A program made the position numbers and the translations under genes. Below the pieces are notes generated by a model, which was not told the origin of the DNA, searched no databases, and saw only the letters and a program-made list of their open reading frames with translations. Of a stretch of 63,428 bases of DNA, positions 4,434 to 62,582 are shown in pieces. The DNA comes from Escherichia coli. GTDB taxonomy: Bacteria > Pseudomonadota > Gammaproteobacteria > Enterobacterales > Enterobacteriaceae. The stretch lies in assembly GCF_024223415.1 (NCBI RefSeq), contig NZ_CP100504.1. One strand, 5' to 3'. The stretch's first letter is position 1. Every line of letters begins with the position of its first letter.

Positions 4434-5198
4434 CTAAACGATGAAATGAATGTGCTTTTTGCCGTGGTAAGGGGAGATCTCGATTTTGGTTTTCACCCGG
4501 AAAACGTCCCACAGCAGCGCTTCGGACAAAATCTCCTCCGGCGTCCCGCTGGCGAGGATCTGCCCCTGCTGCATCACGATCAGCGAATCGCAGAACATCG
4601 CGGCATGGTTAAGATCGTGAATGGCCACAATGCTGGTTACCGGCAGCTCGCTGATCAACTGCATTAACTGCATCTGATGGTGTATATCCAGATGGTTGGT
4701 CGGCTCATCCAGCAGGATTTCGCTCGGGCTCTGCGCCAGCGCGCGGGCGATATGCACCCGCTGCCGCTCGCCGCCGGAGAGGCTTAACCATCCCTGTTCG
4801 CTTTTCTCCAGCATAGCTACCCGCTGCAGCGCGGCGGCAATCGCTTCGTCATCCTGAGCGCTCCAGTTTGAGAACGGAGAGTGGTGGGGAATGCGTCCCA
4901 GGCGCACGACGTCGCGCACCCGCATATTGGCCTCGGTCATGCCGTGTTGCTCGACGCAAGCCACGCGGCGGGCGAGCTGCTTTTTCGCCATCCGGGCGAT
5001 ATCCTGGCCGTCGAGGGTGACGCGACCTGCATCCGGGCGGCGCAGGCCCGCCAGAACGCGCAGCAGCGAGGATTTGCCGCAGCCGTTGGGCCCCAGCAGT
5101 CCGACCGTTTCGCCGCGCGGCACCCGCAGCGAGACATTATTGACGATGACCTTTTTGCCTGCCTTCCAGGTGATATTTTCAGCGCAAATACTCATCAC
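4434..5198 (-). CDS. eitC: ABC transporter ATP-binding protein (iron-siderophore type), EitC-like
   Basis: 254 aa with Walker A GPNGCGKSS, ABC signature LSGGERQR and Walker B LLDEP. Confidence 0.6.
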   Translation of the reverse strand: MMSICAENITWKAGKKVIVNNVSLRVPRGETVGLLGPNGCGKSSLLRVLAGLRRPDAGRVTLDGQDIARMAKKQLARRVACVEQHGMTEANMRVRDVVRLGRIPHHSPFSNWSAQDDEAIAAALQRVAMLEKSEQGWLSLSGGERQRVHIARALAQSPSEILLDEPTNHLDIHHQMQLMQLISELPVTSIVAIHDLNHAAMFCDSLIVMQQGQILASGTPEEILSEALLWDVFRVKTKIEISPYHGKKHIHFIV

Positions 5199-6232
5199 TT
5201 ATTCCTTGAGCGGTAGATAATCACGGCAAAGAAAGGCACCCCAACCAGGGCGGTTACTACCCCAACGGGCAGACTTTGCGGGGCAATCAGCAGGCGCGAC
5301 GCAATGTCCGCCAGTACCATCAATATCGCCCCTGCCAGCGCGCTGGCGATCAGCAACGTTCGGTGCAGCGGGCCAAAGAAGAAACGCATCACGTGCGGCA
5401 CCACCAGGCCAACAAAGCCGATTGAGCCGGCCATGCTGACGATGGTGGCGGTGATCAGCGCCGCAGTGGTGAAGAGGATCAGGCGCACGCGCGGCACAGC
5501 AATCCCCAGCGAGGCGGCGGCATCGTCGCCGAAGGTGAACGCGTCCAGCGCCCGGGCATACCACAGGCAGACCGCCAGACCCGCGAGCACCACCACGATG
5601 ACCAACTGGAATTCGGGCCAGCGGACGCCGCTGAAGCTGCCCAGCAGCCAGAACATCACATCGCGCGCCTGCTGCGCGCTGGCGGTGGTGCTGATGGTAT
5701 AGGCCGTGATGGCGTTAAATAACTGCGAGGCGGCGACGCCCGCAAGAATCGTACGCTCATTGCCGCCGCGCGCGCCGTTAGTCAGCAAGGCGACAAAGGC
5801 GAAGGCGGCGAAGGCCCCGGCAAAGGCGCCTGCCGAGAGGGAAATTGCGCCAGAGCCAAGGCCCAGCACCACGATCGACACCGCGCCGGTGGAGGCCCCG
5901 GCGGAGACGCCGAGGACGTAGGGTTCGGCGAGGGCATTCTTCAGCAAGCTTTGCAGCACGACACCGCAGATAGCGAGGCCGGCGCCGCAGCAGGCGGCGA
6001 CCAGCGCGCGGCTGAGGCGGAAATCCCAGATAACGCTCTCATAGATATGGTTGAGCGGCTCAGCGGTTAAGCCGGTTCTGTTGCTGATAGCATAAAAGAC
6101 ATTCTGCAGCGGGATGGCCAGCTCGCCAACGCTGACGCCCACAGCGATCACCAGCGCCAGCACGATCGCTGCCAGTATACACCAGCCGGTGAGCAGTATG
6201 CTGCGGCACGTCTCAATCGCGCCGACGCTCAT
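5195..6232 (-). CDS. eitB: ABC transporter permease (FecCD family), EitB-like
   Basis: 345-aa polytopic membrane protein; stop and start overlap the flanking operon genes. Confidence 0.6.
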   Translation of the reverse strand: MSVGAIETCRSILLTGWCILAAIVLALVIAVGVSVGELAIPLQNVFYAISNRTGLTAEPLNHIYESVIWDFRLSRALVAACCGAGLAICGVVLQSLLKNALAEPYVLGVSAGASTGAVSIVVLGLGSGAISLSAGAFAGAFAAFAFVALLTNGARGGNERTILAGVAASQLFNAITAYTISTTASAQQARDVMFWLLGSFSGVRWPEFQLVIVVVLAGLAVCLWYARALDAFTFGDDAAASLGIAVPRVRLILFTTAALITATIVSMAGSIGFVGLVVPHVMRFFFGPLHRTLLIASALAGAILMVLADIASRLLIAPQSLPVGVVTALVGVPFFAVIIYRSRNK

Positions 6233-9565: not shown

Positions 9566-9910
9566 GGCGGATAACAAAAGATGTCGCCGGGCTCCTCTTT
9601 TTACTGCGCCGGCTGACGCGGCGCGGCAGGAACGCTGCCTGTGGTCAGTGTCCCGCGTCCGGCCGGGCACGGGACGGGCGCTTTTACCGCTCCCGGCTGG
9701 CGTCGGTGACAGTGTACGCCAGCCCGTCGCCCTTTTCTGATGAGCGCCCTTCAAGCCGCTTTCGCGGCATAACCTTGCCGTCAGAAAGACGACGGCTGCG
9801 GTATTCCACGGTCGGCCTGACCCGTTACCGGGCGCGGTGAACAGCCCACAGGCAGCGGGGAACGGGCGCCACAGGGGCGCCCTCCCGATGCTCCTGTGAG
9901 GATAATTCCC

Positions 9911-10837
9911 ATGCCAAACTGGTGCTCGAATCGTATGTATTTTTCTGGTGAACCGGCACAGATCGCTGAGATTAAACGACTGGCCAACGGTGCAGTCACA
10001 CCGCTTTATCGCCGCGCCACAAATGAAGGTATTCAGCTGTTTCTGGCCGGAAGTGCCGGACTTCTGCAGACCACTGAAGATGTGCGGTTTGAACCATGCC
10101 CCGGACTGACGGCTGCCGGACGTGGTGTTGTATCTCCGGAGAATATAGCGTTCACCCGCTGGCTGACACACCTGCAGAACGGTGTACTGCTGGATGAGCA
10201 AAACTGCCTGATGCTGCATGAAATCTGGCTGCAGAGCGGTACTGGACAGCGTCGCTGGGAAGGATTACCGGACGATGTCAGGGATACCATCACCGCACTT
10301 TTCACCGCAAAAAGAGGTGACTGGTGTGGCTTCTGGAGTAACGAGGATGTATCGGTGTGGTGGAACCGTCTGTGTGACAATGTACTGCCGGAAAAAAACA
10401 TGCCGTTTGACCTGCTGACGGTTCTGCCGACCCGCCTTGATGTTGAAGTGAATGGCTTCAACGGTGGTGTTCTGAACGGTGTTCCTTCTGCATATCACTG
10501 GTATACAGAACGGTATGGTGTCAAGTGGCCTTGTGGTTATGACCTGAATATCAGCAGTCAGGGGGAAAACTTCATTCAGGTGGATTTCGACACGCCGTGG
10601 TGTCAGCCGGAAAGCGACGTTATTGCAGCATTAAGCCGCCGTTTCAGCTGCACGCTGGAGCACTGGTATGCCGAACAGGGCTGTGATTTCTGTGGCTGGC
10701 AGTTGTATGAGCGCGGAGAGCTCGTTGATGTGCTGTGGGGGGAGCTGGAATGGTCTTCCCCGACAGATGACGATGAGCTGCCGGAAGTCACCGGACCTGC
10801 GTGGATAGTCGACAATGTGGCGCATTATGGCGGATGA
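9911..10837 (+). CDS. conserved leading-region protein of unknown function (DUF1281-like by recollection)
   Basis: ATG at 9911 preceded by gagga; ~308-aa Cys/Trp-rich protein; identity is from memory of IncF leading-region ORFs only. Confidence 0.55.
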
Positions 10838-11241
10838 AGTATGACGGAGACGGGCGGGCAACCGCCCGTTTCTTTTCCGGTAAAGGATGTCGCCGCAGGC
10901 TCCGCTTTACCCGGCCATGCGGGGCATGGCCTTGTGGATTTTCAGTTATGTGGCCTCAGCGTCGTGTGCGGGCTGTGCCGTGCCTCCATCGTAGCCGGGC
11001 TTCTGCGGGCGGGTTGCAAGGTAAGGTGAACCGCTGCGGTCACCCGGTCCCTCCTTCCCGTCTGCCGTGATTTTCCGGTCGTTCACCCGCTCAGATTTCG
11101 CGGTCTCACCCTCCAACTCCCGCCAGCCGTGTGCGTCAGGCTGCGGCTTCCCTTGCGCCCTTGCAACCCTGCAGGCCCGGCAAAGATGGAGGCACGGCAC
11201 CGCCCGGTGTCGCGGAATATGTGAACAACGGAGGAAATCCC

Positions 11242-11667
11242 ATGCAGTATGCGAAACCTGTCACTCTGAATGTTGAAGAGTGCGACCGTCTCTCCTTTCT
11301 GCCTTACCTGTTTGGCCAGGATTTTCTGTATGCCGAGGCATCTGTGTACGCGCTGGCGAAAAAAATGATGCCGGAATATGACGGCGGATTCTGGCACTTC
11401 ATCCGCCTGCCGGACGGTGGCGGTTACATGATGCCGGATGGCGACCGTTTCCACATGGTGAACGGTGCAAACTGGTTTGACCGTACCGTGAGTGCTGATG
11501 CCGCAGGCATCATTGTGACTTCCCTTGTGATTAACCGTCAGTTGTGGCTGTACCACGACAGCGGTGATGCAGGACTGACTCACCTGTACAGGATGCGCGA
11601 TGCGCAGTTGTGGAGCCACATCGAATTTCACCCCGAATGCAATGCGATTTACGCGGCACTGGACTGA
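11242..11667 (+). CDS. klcA: antirestriction protein KlcA/ArdB family
   Basis: 141 aa from an internal ATG with RBS ggagga; KlcA-like motifs (FLPYLFG, PDGGGYMMPD, SADAAGIIVT, AIYAALD). Confidence 0.8.
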   Translation: MQYAKPVTLNVEECDRLSFLPYLFGQDFLYAEASVYALAKKMMPEYDGGFWHFIRLPDGGGYMMPDGDRFHMVNGANWFDRTVSADAAGIIVTSLVINRQLWLYHDSGDAGLTHLYRMRDAQLWSHIEFHPECNAIYAALD

Positions 11668-12324: not shown

Positions 12325-12514
12325 TACAGGGGCAGGCGGTGGAGGCCGCCTGTCAGCCCGCGCGAAAACCCCTGGCAGGCTGACGCCTGCCGGAAGGGAA
12401 GCGGGCCACGCTGGCGCGTCGCCCGTTACCCTTCCCGTCTGTGATGTGTCTGACTCAGGAGTGTTTCTTTCTTATGTTATGGAACTGTTCCTGATGTTGT
12501 TGTTCCTTTATCTG

Positions 12515-13125
12515 CTGCTCTGATTCTGACTACTGCAGTGTTGTTCTGTCTGCCGGGCGCACCTTCGGCTCCCGGCTGCCTGGCGGCATCCGGTCGTCAG
12601 GCCCGACTCCGACAGGCAGCTGCTGGCGCACCCGCCAGTCTCCGCCGAACCCGCTGGCGCGGTTTCGGGCTGTCGCTACGGTCCGATGCGTGAAAACCCC
12701 GGGCTTGCAGCGACCGTTCCGGTCGCGCCGCCTCTGTCGCGCCGTGGCCTGCGCTCCAGGCATCCCGGCAAAAAGACGCCGGGATGTAAGGCGCAACGCC
12801 GTTTCGCAAACCGCGCTTCACGTCGTTGCTGCGGGTCCCTGCTCATTGCCTGCCGGGTGCCACACACCCGTATGAGTCCCTGTCGCCGGGGGCATAGACA
12901 GCCACAACCTGCCGCACTGACTGTCCAGGGTAAATGAACAGCCCACAAAATTTTTTACCCAAAACCCGGTAAAAAATTTTGCGTTCTGCCCAGGACAGGT
13001 GCGTCAGGCCGTGGCAGTGATGCCCCTTGCGGCGAAGGTTCTCAAACGGGTGAAGTTCATACCACAGGGAATACAGCAGCAGGTTCCCGCGAAACGTCAA
13101 AACTGCGGCTCCCGAAACTCAACGG
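12515..13125. repeat. leading-region ~620-bp direct repeat, copy 1 (Frpo/ssi-like)
   Basis: Near-identical by eye to 15867-16496 and 21269-21897; GC-rich with internal hairpins such as aaaattttttacc-(9 nt)-ggtaaaaaatttt. Confidence 0.85.
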
Positions 13126-13363
13126 GTGATGTTCTTTAAAAATCAGGATTTATTTCAGGCTCCGGCAATACGCATTTATGTGTTCTGTCAGTCATCCGGC
13201 TGGCAGGTAATGAGAACGCAGGAACAGAAGGAGGAAAACACCGGAGAACGTCAGACGCAGATATGAAAAAAGCAGGTCAGGGACCTGCTTAATCCACGCC
13301 GTAAGAATTGCGCAACCAATTTTGACGGCATTGTTAACCAATTTGTCATAAGGAGTTTCATTT

Positions 13364-13594
13364 ATGACGGTAAGTATTGTTTCACCTTCCGCAGCGGCTG
13401 TAAAGCCCCGCCGTCATCCCCGTTTCAGACGCGAAGACATCCCCGCGCCGGAAATTGACCCCGTGCTGAAAGCCTTCGGGCGACACATAGCCCGGAGTTT
13501 TCACCGGGGGCGTGGTGTACACATCCCCGCCATGAAAAACACGGCCTTCGGGCAGGTGCTCCGCACACTCGAACTGAAACGCGCTTTTAACTGA
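13364..13594 (+). CDS. small basic hypothetical protein
   Basis: 76-aa ORF with RBS aggag 8 nt upstream; first ORF downstream of repeat copy 1. Confidence 0.4.
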   Translation: MTVSIVSPSAAAVKPRRHPRFRREDIPAPEIDPVLKAFGRHIARSFHRGRGVHIPAMKNTAFGQVLRTLELKRAFN

Positions 13595-15796: not shown

Positions 15797-15855
15797 CTGC
15801 TACTGCTACTGCTACTGCTACTGCTACTGCTACTGCTACTGCTACTGCTACTGCT
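15797..15855. repeat. hexanucleotide tandem repeat (CTGCTA)n, about 10 units
   Basis: ctgcta repeated in tandem immediately 5' of repeat copy 2; copies 1 and 3 have only a short unrepeated ctgct(g)ctc stretch at the equivalent position. Confidence 0.9.
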
Positions 15856-15866
15856 CTTCTTTTTCC

Positions 15867-16496
15867 TGCTGCTCTGATTCTGACTACTGCAGTGTTGTTC
15901 TGTCTGCCGGGCGCACCTTCGGCTCCCGGCTGCCTGGCGGCATCCGGTCGTCAGGCCCGACTCCGACAGGCAGCTGCTGGCGCACCTGCCAGTCTCCGCC
16001 GAACCCGCTGGCGCGGTTTCGGGCTGCCGCTACGGTCCGATGCGTGAAAACCCGGCTTGCAGCGACCGTTCCGGTCGCGCCGCCCCTGTCGCGCCGTGAC
16101 CTGCGCTCCAGGCATCCCGGCAAAAAGACGCCGGGATGTAAGGCGCAACGCCGTTTCGCAAACCGCGCTTCACGTCGTTGCGGCGGGTCCCTGCCCGTTG
16201 TTGTGTCCGGTGCCATTCACCTGTTTAAGCCCCTGTCGCCGGGGGCTGATACAGCCACAACCTGCCGCACTGACTGTCCAGGGTAAATGAACAGCCCACA
16301 AAATTTTTTACCCAAAACCCGGTAAAAAATTTTGCGTTCTGCCCAGGACAGGTGCGTCAGGCCGTGGCAGTGATGCCCCATGCGGCGAAGGTTCTCAAAC
16401 AGGTGATGGTGAATACCGGAGGGAACAAAGAGCAGGTCCCCGCAAAACGTCAAAACCGCGGCTCCCGAAACTCAACAGATGATGGGGGCTGAAAAC
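15867..16496. repeat. leading-region ~620-bp direct repeat, copy 2 (Frpo/ssi-like)
   Basis: Near-identical to copies 1 and 3; ends about 20 bp upstream of ssb. Confidence 0.85.
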
Positions 16497-16517
16497 ATCA
16501 ACAGAAGGAGACACATC

Positions 16518-20559: not shown

Positions 20560-20739
20560 TGCGGCAACAATCACACGGATTTCCCGTGAACGGTCTGAAT
20601 GAGCGGATTATTTTCAGGGAAAGTGAGTGTGGTCAGCGTGCAGGTATATGGGCTATGATGTGCCCGGCGCTTGAGGCTTTCTGCCTCATGACGTGAAGGT
20701 GGTTTGTTGCCGTGTTGTGTGGCAGAAAGAAGATAGCCC

Positions 20740-20810
20740 CGTAGTAAGTTAATTTTCATTAACCACCACGAGGCATCCCTATGTCTAGTCCACATCAGGA
20801 TAGCCTCTTA
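20740..20810 (-). ncRNA. sok: Sok antisense RNA (approximate)
   Basis: Placed by position antisense to the mok/hok leader, from the known organisation of hok/sok loci; exact ends not determinable by eye. Confidence 0.35.
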
Positions 20811-20993
20811 CCGCGCTTTGCGCAAGGAGAAGAAGGCCATGAAACTACCACGAAGTTCCCTTGTCTGGTGTGTGTTGATCGTGTGTCTCACACTGTTGAT
20901 ATTCACTTATCTGACACGAAAATCGCTGTGCGAGATTCGTTACAGAGACGGACACAGGGAGGTGGCGGCTTTCATGGCTTACGAATCCGGTAA
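20781..20993 (+). CDS. mok: Mok (modulation of killing) overlapping reading frame
   Basis: 70-aa ORF overlapping hok in another frame, as in R1 hok/sok. Confidence 0.55.
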
Positions 20994-20997: not shown

Positions 20998-21268
20998 CAA
21001 CCTGGAGGCGGGCGCAGGCCCGCCTTTTCAGGACTGATGCTGGTCTGACTACTGAAGCGCCTTTATAAAGGGGCTGCTGGTTCGCCGGTAGCCCCTTTCT
21101 CCTTGCTGATGTTGTACGGGCATGAACAACCTGACTTCAGGAAGGTCGTTTCCCTTCAGGAACGGGGATGAACGCGCGCCTGCGGCGCCCGTTCTTTTCC
21201 CCCGCCTTCTCTGGTTATGGCCTGTCAGAAATCACATCACCTTCCCTGTGATTATTCTCTTTTTCTTC

Positions 21269-21897
21269 CTGCTCTGATTCTGACTACTGCAGTGTTGTCC
21301 TGTCTGCCGGCGCACCTTCGGCTCCCGGCTGCCTGGCGGCATCCGGTCGTCAGGCCCGACTCCGACAGGCAGCTGCTGGCGCACCTGCCAGTCTCCGCCG
21401 AACCCGCTGGCGCGGTTTCGGGCTGTCGCTACGGTCCGATGCGTGAAAACCCCGGGCTTGCAGCGACCGTTCCGGTCGCGCCGCCTCTGTCGCGCCGTGG
21501 CCTGCGCTCCAGGCATCCCGGCAAAAAGACGCCGGGATGTAAGGCGCAACGCCGTTTCGCAAACCGCGCTTCACGTCGTTGCGGCGGGTCCCTGCCCGTT
21601 GTTGTGTCCGGTGCCATTCACCTGTTTAAGCCCCTGTCGCCGGGGGCTGATACAGCCACAACCTGCCGCACTGACTGTCCAGGGTAAATGAACAGCCCAC
21701 AAAATTTTTTACCCAAAACCCGGTAAAAAATTTTGCGTTCTGCCCAGGACAGGTGCGTCAGGCCGTGGCAGTGATGCCCCTTGCGGCGAAGGTTCTCAAA
21801 CAGGTGATGGTGAATACCGGAGGGAACAAAGAGCAGGTCCCCGCAAAACGTCAAAACCGCGGCTCCCGAAACTCAACAGATGATGGGGGCTGAAAAC
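21269..21897. repeat. leading-region ~620-bp direct repeat, copy 3 (Frpo/ssi-like)
   Basis: Near-identical to copies 1 and 2; ends about 20 bp upstream of the ORF at 21918. Confidence 0.85.
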
Positions 21898-21917
21898 CAG
21901 AGAGAGGAGAAAGCTGG

Positions 21918-22323: not shown

Positions 22324-23145
22324 ATGCGATTAGCTTCCCGTTTTGGTCGGTATAATTCCATCCGTCGTGAACGTCCTTTAACGGATGATGAATTAATGCA
22401 GTTCGTGCCTTCGGTATTTTCCGGTGATAAACATGAGTCCCGGAGTGAACGTTATACGTATATTCCAACAATCAATATCATCAATAAGTTACGTGATGAA
22501 GGTTTCCAGCCATTCTTTGCCTGTCAGAGTCGGGTTCGTGATTTGGGACGCCGCGAATACAGTAAACATATGTTACGTCTTCGCAGGGAAGGGCATATTA
22601 ACGGGCAGGAAGTTCCTGAAATTATCCTGCTTAATTCACATGATGGTTCATCCAGTTATCAGATGATCCCCGGAATTTTTCGTTTTGTCTGCACAAATGG
22701 CCTGGTGTGCGGAAATAATTTTGGCGAAATCCGTGTTCCACATAAAGGTGATATTGTCGGGCAGGTTATCGAGGGAGCGTATGAAGTGCTCGGTGTCTTT
22801 GATAAGGTCACTGATAATATGGAGGCGATGAAAGAAATTCATCTTAACAGTGACGAGCAACATTTATTTGGCAGAGCTGCACTGATGGTCAGGTATGAAG
22901 ATGAAAATAAAACGCCAGTGACGCCTGAACAAATAATTACTCCCCGTCGTCGGGAAGATAAAAAGAACGATCTCTGGACAACCTGGCAGCGGGTTCAGGA
23001 GAATATGATAAAAGGTGGATTATCGGGGCGAAGTGCCTCCGGGAAAAATACCAGGACAAGAGCCATTACAGGTATTGATGGTGATATAAGAATCAACAAG
23101 GCGTTATGGGTGATTGCCGAACAGTTCAGAAAGTGGAAGTCATGA
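22324..23145 (+). CDS. DUF932-like leading-region protein
   Basis: 273 aa from the ATG at 22324 (RBS aggag); conserved partner of orf169 near oriT in F-like plasmids. Confidence 0.65.
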   Translation: MRLASRFGRYNSIRRERPLTDDELMQFVPSVFSGDKHESRSERYTYIPTINIINKLRDEGFQPFFACQSRVRDLGRREYSKHMLRLRREGHINGQEVPEIILLNSHDGSSSYQMIPGIFRFVCTNGLVCGNNFGEIRVPHKGDIVGQVIEGAYEVLGVFDKVTDNMEAMKEIHLNSDEQHLFGRAALMVRYEDENKTPVTPEQIITPRRREDKKNDLWTTWQRVQENMIKGGLSGRSASGKNTRTRAITGIDGDIRINKALWVIAEQFRKWKS

Positions 23146-23949: not shown

Positions 23950-24364
23950 TTTTCCACCTCTGGTGACTTTATCCGTAAATAATTTAACCCACTCCACAAA
24001 AAGGCTCAACAGGTTGGTGGTTCTCACCACCAAAAGCACCACACCCCACGCAAAAACAAGTTTTTGCTGATTTACGTTTTAAATCATGTAATTAACAAAT
24101 GCTATTTATATTTAATTATTCTGAATTATTAAATAGAGAGTCGTTGGCGATCCTGTTACGACCCTATAGCGACCCTTATTAGGATCAGTACTGACAATTT
24201 TCATGAAAAACATTGATATATATTAGGGGCACCCCTAGCGCCGGATCGCATTTTTTTATAGGATAATCCTAGAGGCGCTACTAGGAGTGTCTTTCTTACT
24301 TGTAAACACTATATTCATATTTATACTGAAAAGTTCATTGCTTAATGATGAAAGGTTTTATTTT
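23950..24364. other. oriT (origin of transfer) with F-type nic site
   Basis: Minus strand reads gcaaaaacttgtttttgcgtggggtgt/ggtgcttttggtggtgagaaccacc, matching the F oriT nick region; nick falls between 24039 and 24040 on the minus strand; AT-rich region upstream of traM. Confidence 0.8.
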
Positions 24365-62250: not shown

Positions 62251-62375
62251 AATAGTCAGCAACAGGGAATGTGGTATTATCGCGGCGGGTGTCTGAGCCT
62301 TTCTGGTTCAGGCAAGACGCAGGTACCAGAAATGCGAAGACCCCACTTGTTAATCCATTAACTCGTGAGGTCTGC

Positions 62376-62582
62376 ATGAAGTACTTGAACACTACTGATT
62401 GTAGCCTCTTCCTTGCAGAGAGGTCAAAGTTTATGACGAAATATGCCCTTATCGGGTTGCTCGCCGTGTGCGCCACGGTGTTGTGTTTTTCACTGATATT
62501 CAGGGAACGGTTATGTGAACTGAATATTCACAGGGGAAATACAGTGGTGCAGGTAACTCTGGCCTACGAAGCACGGAAGTAA
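62376..62582 (+). CDS. srnB: SrnB (Hok/Gef-family membrane toxin locus)
   Basis: 68-aa ORF MKYLNTTDCSLFLAERSKFMTKYALIGLLAVCATVLCFSLIFRERLCELNIHRGNTVVQVTLAYEARK; Hok-like core starts at MTKYAL; a GC-rich fold-back region follows. Confidence 0.8.
   Translation: MKYLNTTDCSLFLAERSKFMTKYALIGLLAVCATVLCFSLIFRERLCELNIHRGNTVVQVTLAYEARK

Follow-up and report, generated by a model that had tools for sequence, protein, structure and literature searches.

The klcA/ardB-type anti-restriction gene of the plasmid analysed here is preceded by a gap of unusual composition. In the window (the whole stretch of DNA that was analysed, 63,428 nt of contig NZ_CP100504.1 in E. coli assembly GCF_024223415.1), G+C content reaches 63.9% in 10838-11241, as against 52.3% for the whole window and 54% for the flanking genes. 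This raises the question of what the gap contains, and whether klcA is expressed from it. An initial annotation of the bare sequence had proposed that the gap might be a second single-strand promoter or initiation element driving klcA, unrelated to three large repeats in the same region. The features needed for the answer are listed by window coordinates and strand.

10838-11241: stretch studied, the non-coding gap between the DUF1281 ORF (9896-10837) and klcA (11242-11667)
10847-10877, plus strand: intrinsic terminator of the upstream DUF1281 gene, an inverted repeat with the stem GAGACGGGCGG/CCGCCCGTTTC (10847-10872) and a T run
10880-10910, minus strand: small 5′ hairpin A (GTAAAG ... CTTTAC), beginning with a ~27-nt motif (AAAGGATGTCGCCG..GGCTCC.CTTT) that recurs at the start of the class 3 element at 9576
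10882-11237, minus (transferred) strand: conserved 356-bp module, by homology a probable class 2 ssDNA promoter (ssp2 orthologue) with transcription toward klcA
10913-10931, minus strand: small hairpin B, the inverted repeat GGCCATGC-GGG-GCATGGCC
10969-11025, minus strand: 3′ arm of the large hairpin, non-template, with the putative -10 TACGAT and the putative -35 TTGCAA
11026-11154, minus strand: apical domain, branched and G-rich on the transferred strand in predicted folds
11155-11206, minus strand: 5′ arm of the large hairpin, template, with the -35 partner at 11161-11166 and the -10 partner at 11182-11187
11207-11241, plus strand: short leader of klcA (ATG at 11242), containing the ribosome-binding site GGAGGA at 11230-11235
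11242-11667, plus strand: klcA/ardB-type anti-restriction gene (yubI / yfgB in F), Pfam PF03230 Antirestrict, E = 1.1e-26
12484-13146, 15838-16499 and 21237-21900: three large repeats, copies of F Frpo2/Frpo1 (class 1)

Place of the gap in the leading region

The window belongs to an F-like IncFII/FIA plasmid, and 10838-11241 showed 100% identity to E. coli plasmid pMTY1886_NA3 (AP026457.1), in which klcA is annotated as antirestriction protein YubI. An exact copy of GTGGGGTGTGGTGCTTT, which we take to be the nic sequence of the F plasmid, is located on the minus strand at 24033-24049, and an Rfam search placed the traJ 5′ UTR/FinP at 24.8 kb, with more tra-linked RNAs beyond it. As the nic sequence is on the minus strand and traJ/FinP lies next to it at 24.8 kb, the minus strand is, to judge from these landmarks, the transferred strand and the template for klcA. 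The transferred strand enters the recipient from about 24 kb toward lower coordinates, and the plus-strand genes of the leading region (about 9.5-24 kb), including klcA, use it as template.

Rfam generated nine matches in the window, none of them within 10838-11241 at the gathering score. The matches in the window include AS-pc01 (antisense to pHK01_035; minus strand, 13267-13369), which directly follows the first Frpo copy, as well as two sok antitoxin RNAs on the plus strand at 20665-20841 and 62287-62443. The former sok falls within the leading region and is flanked by Frpo copies two and three; in F, flmAB is located between Frpo1 and Frpo2, matching this sok position (Couturier et al., PMC9849209).

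The gap is not a single unit. Its first part, 10838-10895, is 100% identical to the sequence that follows the DUF1281 gene of pESBL-EA11 (L136:8399-8456), and homology to the class 2 elements of F and pESBL begins only at 10877-10882; the DUF1281 terminator is therefore not part of the element. The interval initially proposed was thus slightly too wide: 10882-11237 is the element, and the first 44 bases (10838-10881) lie outside it. At the other end, 5 nt separate the module from the klcA ATG, and the leader at 11207-11241 is kept in all klcA-linked copies.

The three large repeats showed 85-94% identity to F at L002:10175-10625 and L002:15563-16015, upstream of ssb and ygeA. The sources for Frpo and ssi1-3 are reportedly Masai & Arai 1997 and Bates et al. 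1999. F has two Frpo regions, and the third copy in the window (12484-13146) is the most divergent and precedes a ydbA-methylase gene pair. Frpo2 and Frpo1 are the classic single-strand promoters (Couturier et al. 2023, PMC9849209). A relation of the klcA element to these repeats was rejected, in agreement with the initial annotation, which saw no resemblance: blastn with 7-nt words against the three window repeats gave no match to the klcA element, and the Smith-Waterman score was 13, as against 11.8 ± 1.6 for shuffled sequences. What the klcA element would share with the class 1 elements, of which the leading region of the window holds three copies, is the principle of a hairpin on the transferred strand that rebuilds a sigma-70 promoter and is active only before conversion to double-stranded DNA. 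The two classes differ in that a preprint assigns priming to ssp1/Frpo and a roadblock to ssp2 (bioRxiv 10.64898/2026.01.09.698686).

Another element is located on the other side of the DUF1281 ORF. The segment 9576-9895 shows 95.6% identity to the sequence immediately preceding the M.EcoGIX-type methylase gene in pESBL-EA11 (L136:8443-8760) and in F (L002:5826-6148). The class 3 ssDNA promoter (ssp3) was placed by Wen et al. 5′ of the M.EcoGIX-type methylase (PMC12672017). In the window, this class 3-like segment adjoins the DUF1281 ORF (9896-10837) instead of a methylase gene, and its fold reached -101.5 kcal/mol on the transferred strand and -94.4 kcal/mol on the plus strand. The klcA element and the class 3 element have the overall layout and the first ~27 nt, at hairpin A, in common (local alignment score of the motif 17, as against 11.7 ± 1.5 for shuffles), but past this 5′ motif the alignment drops to shuffle level. 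They also differ in that the preprint finds no roadblock activity for ssp3 (bioRxiv 10.64898/2026.01.09.698686).

Homology to class 2 single-strand promoters

The module at 10882-11237 showed 89-90% identity to the yffB-yfgB intergenic region of F (L002:8395-8750), 89.5% to the sequence directly 5′ of klcA in pESBL-EA11 (NC_018659; L136:11012-11366) and 86.9% to that directly 5′ of ardA in the same plasmid (L136:17951-18310), so that identity to the known elements is 87-90% across 356 bp. An IncI-gamma/K1 plasmid carries the same pair of copies, 5′ of klcA and 5′ of ardA.

The pESBL hairpins 5′ of klcA and ardA were described as 'class 2' ssDNA promoters by Wen et al. (Nucleic Acids Res 2025, PMC12672017), who found the class to be unrelated in sequence to Frpo/ssi (class 1) and conserved in F, mapped its start sites by 5′ RACE in early transconjugants, and reported that the F and pESBL orthologues are induced early after transfer only. 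The F region yffB-yfgB was named ssp2 and controls yfgB, and its deletion reduces transfer into restriction-proficient hosts (bioRxiv 10.64898/2026.01.09.698686). The F region matched by the window was equated with ssp2 because the primers of that preprint, 'ssp2-specific' at L002:8175 and 'yffB up F' at L002:8084, map just upstream of it. In F, complementary-strand synthesis stalls at the stem end of ssp2, UvrD relieves the stall, and the stall prolongs expression of the downstream single-strand promoters (bioRxiv 10.64898/2026.01.09.698686).

The resemblance extends beyond the alignment. As with ssp2 of F and the pESBL elements, the window copy is located in the leading region, is oriented alike with respect to nic so that the transferred strand serves as template, and directly precedes a klcA/ardB family gene. 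Its transferred strand folds into a large stem-loop of about 240 nt that would rebuild -35 and -10 boxes, its non-template arm bearing hexamers that resemble both, again with mismatches at -10. The window copy differs from the known ones in its putative -35 (TTGCAA instead of TTGCAT) and putative -10 (TACGAT instead of TAAGAT), in a spacer bulge on the opposite strand, in one mismatch of the basal helix, and in its upstream neighbour, which is the DUF1281 gene in the window, yffB in F and the corresponding hypothetical gene in pESBL.

Taken together, the homology and its setting suggest that 10882-11237 is the class 2 promoter copy of this plasmid and that klcA is driven by it from the entering single strand; we put the probability of this reading at roughly 80%. 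A second function, as a barrier to complementary-strand synthesis, is most likely, by homology to F. The kind of element is already described, and the window copy is an allelic variant of it in an unusual upstream context. The guess of the initial annotation that a second single-strand promoter unrelated to the large repeats drives klcA thus finds support through homology to class 2/ssp2, and the comparison with ssi elements elsewhere that it had suggested relates the element to class 2, without similarity to class 1 Frpo/ssi. The initiation-element half of the guess fared less well, as the published second role of ssp2 is a block to the complementary strand and not a priming site.

It was not until late 2025 that class 2 elements were recognised. 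Single-strand promoters allow anti-restriction and SOS-inhibition genes to be expressed in the seconds before the plasmid becomes double-stranded and vulnerable, and the window, a common resistance-plasmid backbone (IncFII/FIA), holds class 1, 2 and 3 elements in one leading region.

The large hairpin, its putative promoter and competing readings

The module contains an imperfect inverted repeat with outer arms at 10969-11000/11175-11206 (32 nt, 91% complementary) and inner arms at 11011-11021/11159-11169 (11 nt, 100% complementary), and the whole, 10969-11206, folds to a hairpin of about 240 nt. Folding of the minus strand, as the initial annotation had suggested, gave -95.0 kcal/mol for 10878-11242; dinucleotide-shuffled sequences averaged -71.9 ± 4.3 (z -5.45), and none of 100 folded as well. 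For 10960-11215 the value was -77.3 kcal/mol (z -6.08), unmatched by any of 200 shuffles. The description of a GC-rich (64% G+C), structured and non-coding stretch before klcA was thus borne out, with fold z scores of -5.4 to -6.1. The small hairpin quoted there is also real, GGCCATGC at 10913-10920 pairing with GCATGGCC at 10924-10931 across a 3-nt loop. The dominant hairpin was missed, however, and it is this hairpin of 240 nt that, by homology, would carry the promoter, and not the small hairpins on which the guess had been based. Among four aligned F-type and IncI-type klcA/ardA copies, the stem of hairpin B is invariant and its loop variable. A differently paired stem near hairpin B, at 10918-10936, is terminator-like on the plus strand.

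For conservation of the fold, metagenomes were scanned with two 12-mers of the basal stem separated by a variable gap, which gave 120 loci and 86 distinct variants. A scan of a genome collection with a 22-mer of the apical loop added little diversity (only nine loci, nearly all on E. coli-type plasmid contigs). The 86 variants, from public genome and metagenome contigs, are mutually related, with a mean column identity of 93%, and most pairs never vary; the invariance of the basal arms is by construction, because the search pattern fixes 12 bp per arm and misses more distant relatives. All 86 fold to a hairpin spanning 233-242 nt with 76-84 pairs, and each folds more stably as the transferred strand than as the complement, with a margin of 8.3 ± 2.5 kcal/mol. 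This asymmetry is partly due to G-T wobbles on the transferred strand that become C-A mismatches on the other (pairs 60-188, 80-167 and 113-133). In the RNAalifold consensus, 99.8% of the cells are standard pairs, as against 29-41% with slid partners. Changes on both sides were found at three pairs, in 26 cells, a number that none of 500 shuffles attained (4.7 ± 1.8); the apical pairs 93-155 and 110-136 show such changes on both sides. As the MAFFT alignment is unreliable in the spacer because of indels, the arm types were tabulated and folded singly, which revealed compensatory differences in the promoter stem (GGGTTGCAAGG/CCTTGCAACCC versus GGGATGCAAGG/CCTTGCATCCC, and GGCGGGGATGCA/TGCATCCCCGCC versus GTCGGGAATGCA/TGCATTCGCGAC). 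Given the low diversity, the kinship of the variants and the fixed basal arms, the evidence from covariation is real but modest. The apical end is more plastic: in some relatives, the distal stem-loop is swapped for an unrelated perfect hairpin (CGCG-TTTT-CGCG).

The 3′ arm, read 5′ to 3′, is CCTTGCAACCCGCCCGCAGAAGCCCGGCTACGATGGAGGCACGG. All 86 variants have TTGCA(A/T) and TA(A/C)GAT on the non-template arm, with a variable spacer in between. The -35 would be TTGCAA (plus coordinates 11014-11019) and the -10 TACGAT (10988-10993), each hexamer of the window allele agreeing with the consensus at 4 of 6 positions. In the window allele, TACGAT has mismatches at its first and third positions and A(-11) is paired; in the F allele, TAAGAT lies inside a 3-nt bubble. 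The spacer of the window allele is 20 nt on the non-template arm and 15 nt on the template arm, that of the F allele 15 and 19 nt, respectively, so that the mean is about 17 in both alleles, with the bulged nucleotides on opposite strands. The basal helix of the window allele consists of 5 + 16 bp, is GC-rich and includes one G.A mismatch, which F is without. The window allele thus differs from the tested ones of F and pESBL exactly in the promoter stem, which, like the imperfect hexamers, counts against the promoter reading; it is also a natural variant in which to ask how spacer bulges and -10 mismatches set the strength of promoter and roadblock. Transcription would be predicted to start at about 11194, 7 nt past the -10, giving a leader of about 48 nt, and a stall of the complementary strand would be expected at the outer end of the 3′ arm, at about 10961-10969.

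These elements suggest the following course of events. In conjugation, the minus strand would enter the recipient 5′ first from nic at about 24.04 kb, and while it is single-stranded the inverted repeat at 10969-11206 would snap back into the hairpin. The stem would rebuild a duplex sigma-70 promoter with TTGCAA ... TACGAT on the non-template arm, partly pre-melted at the -10 owing to the mismatches there. Host RNA polymerase would start near 11194 and run outward along the transferred strand into klcA and later genes, so that the anti-restriction protein would be made before the plasmid is a double-stranded target. Synthesis of the complementary strand would then abolish the hairpin, and the duplex, as a poor promoter, would leave expression off. 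If the stem behaves like that of its F homologue ssp2, its GC-rich base may in addition hold up the complementary strand, as synthesis comes in from low coordinates, until UvrD opens the helix; the three Frpo promoters downstream would then remain longer in their active, single-stranded state. The sso of rolling-circle plasmids is alike in that folded ssDNA forms a promoter-like hairpin recognised by host RNA polymerase, but the sso product is a lagging-strand primer and not an mRNA, unlike that of class 2.

The window allele might instead be mainly or only a barrier, its promoter weak or lost, with klcA transcribed from another source, such as read-through out of the class 3-like segment at 9576-9895. 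The roadblock and promoter activities of F ssp2 are indeed separable (bioRxiv 10.64898/2026.01.09.698686), the window allele has the paired A(-11) and the long non-template spacer described above, and the class 3 homologue, which points the same way, is only 1.3 kb upstream. Read-through, however, would have to cross the terminator at 10847-10877, between the DUF1281 gene and the element, and both TTGCAA and TACGAT are retained; moreover, the allele is common (at least 691 plasmid records at ≥99% identity) and is found before both klcA and ardA, which argues for a working promoter. We regard this reading as unlikely, and marginally less likely still that the element is chiefly an ssi site, where hairpin RNA or a primosome primes complementary-strand synthesis and klcA expression is incidental. 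The latter was raised by the initial annotation and has a precedent in class 1, where Frpo transcripts can serve as primers for DNA synthesis in vitro and, according to the preprint, in vivo. In F, however, early transcription-dependent conversion was seen downstream of ssp1a/b while ssp2 acts as a block, and rifampicin does not relieve the delay at F ssp2 (bioRxiv 10.64898/2026.01.09.698686); in the sampled contigs, furthermore, the element is always directly before an anti-restriction gene with a ribosome-binding site.

The intergenic position directly upstream of a gene, and the fact that palindromes often bind regulators, would also fit an ordinary double-strand promoter with a klcA leader, the inverted repeat being an operator or a regulatory structure at the RNA level. 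A consensus scan of both strands of 10600-11500 found no sigma-70 promoter, and on the plus strand of the linear duplex the hexamers read TTGCAA-N15-AAAGAT, a poor promoter. Both results are in keeping with promoter activity that disappears once the DNA becomes double-stranded. The predicted start is downstream of the hairpin, so that the hairpin would be absent from the mRNA, and it is the minus strand, not the mRNA-sense strand, that is the more stable in 86 of 86 variants; together with the induction of the F and pESBL orthologues only early after transfer, this makes a double-strand promoter improbable. Least credible of all is a small protein encoded by the 84-aa minus-strand ORF at 10946-11200. 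The ORF is present, and part of it (10946-11116; record positions 22624-22794) is annotated as a hypothetical CDS in AP026457.1, but it generated no Pfam match, relatives carry 1-, 4- and 5-nt indels inside it that break the frame, and high G+C makes long spurious ORFs likely. For the lack of a Pfam match and the frame-breaking indels in relatives, the hypothetical CDS of AP026457.1 inside the hairpin was rejected as very probably spurious, and the stretch should be labelled a regulatory element, not a hypothetical CDS.

Alleles, probable exchange and remote relatives

Plasmid records with the class 2 element number at least 5000 and come from Escherichia, Klebsiella, Salmonella and Shigella, often with 2-5 matching places each. 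Among the 5000 records listed, 691 are of the window type (≥99% identity), and 3248 are in the 90-95% band that includes the F-type matches; the window allele is thus a distinct one carried by hundreds of sequenced plasmids. Every sampled copy with a readable downstream gene is located directly upstream of a klcA/ardB-type or an ardA gene. As both alleles are found before both klcA and ardA, and as arm-mosaic forms exist, the distribution points to exchange between class 2 copies.

The junction between the DUF1281 gene and the class 2 element was seen in one record among the matches listed (AP026457.1) and in 0 of 134 sampled copies. The class 2 element (10877-10895) and the class 3 element (9576-9602) open with the same ~27-nt motif, and 10838-10895 corresponds, at 100% identity, to the pESBL DUF1281 terminator plus the first 14 nt of the pESBL class 3 element, which places the junction inside the shared motif. 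This looks like the product of recombination between two ~27-nt motifs that removed the methylase operon.

Going further, and quite tentatively, since we consider it doubtful though less so than the competing readings of the element itself, the single-strand promoter modules may be exchangeable cassettes with a 5′ 'handle' of ~27 nt (AAAGGATGTCGCCG..CTTT). Recombination at the handle or between the arms would then reshuffle the pairing of promoters with anti-defence genes and make arm mosaics like that of the window, with the spacer bulge on the other strand and a different promoter or roadblock strength. If so, the conserved 85-nt 5′ part, which as we understand it is outside the published hairpin model, would serve some separate purpose, such as in stalling or UvrD entry.

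Near-identical copies (L004, L005, L007, L008 and L012) were also found on short contigs labelled Streptomyces morookaense, Oscillospiraceae/Collinsella MAGs and Acinetobacter idrijaensis; contamination or mis-binning is the most likely source of copies under such unrelated organism labels. A search for remote relatives with nhmmer revealed a hairpin related to class 2, but far more diverged, in Klebsiella pneumoniae ATCC 13883 (scaffold NZ_KN046819.1, L009:4745-4973), with the conserved blocks GCCGTGCC..GTAGCCGGGC and GCCCGGC..GGCACGGC. Its fold, too, is a long hairpin (dG -60.5, z -3.5), whose non-template arm carries TACAGT. It is located 2.4 kb upstream of the ordinary klcA copy on that plasmid, and a DNA methylase gene (5003-5692) follows it directly. 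The class 2 family may thus be broader than the copies linked to klcA and ardA.
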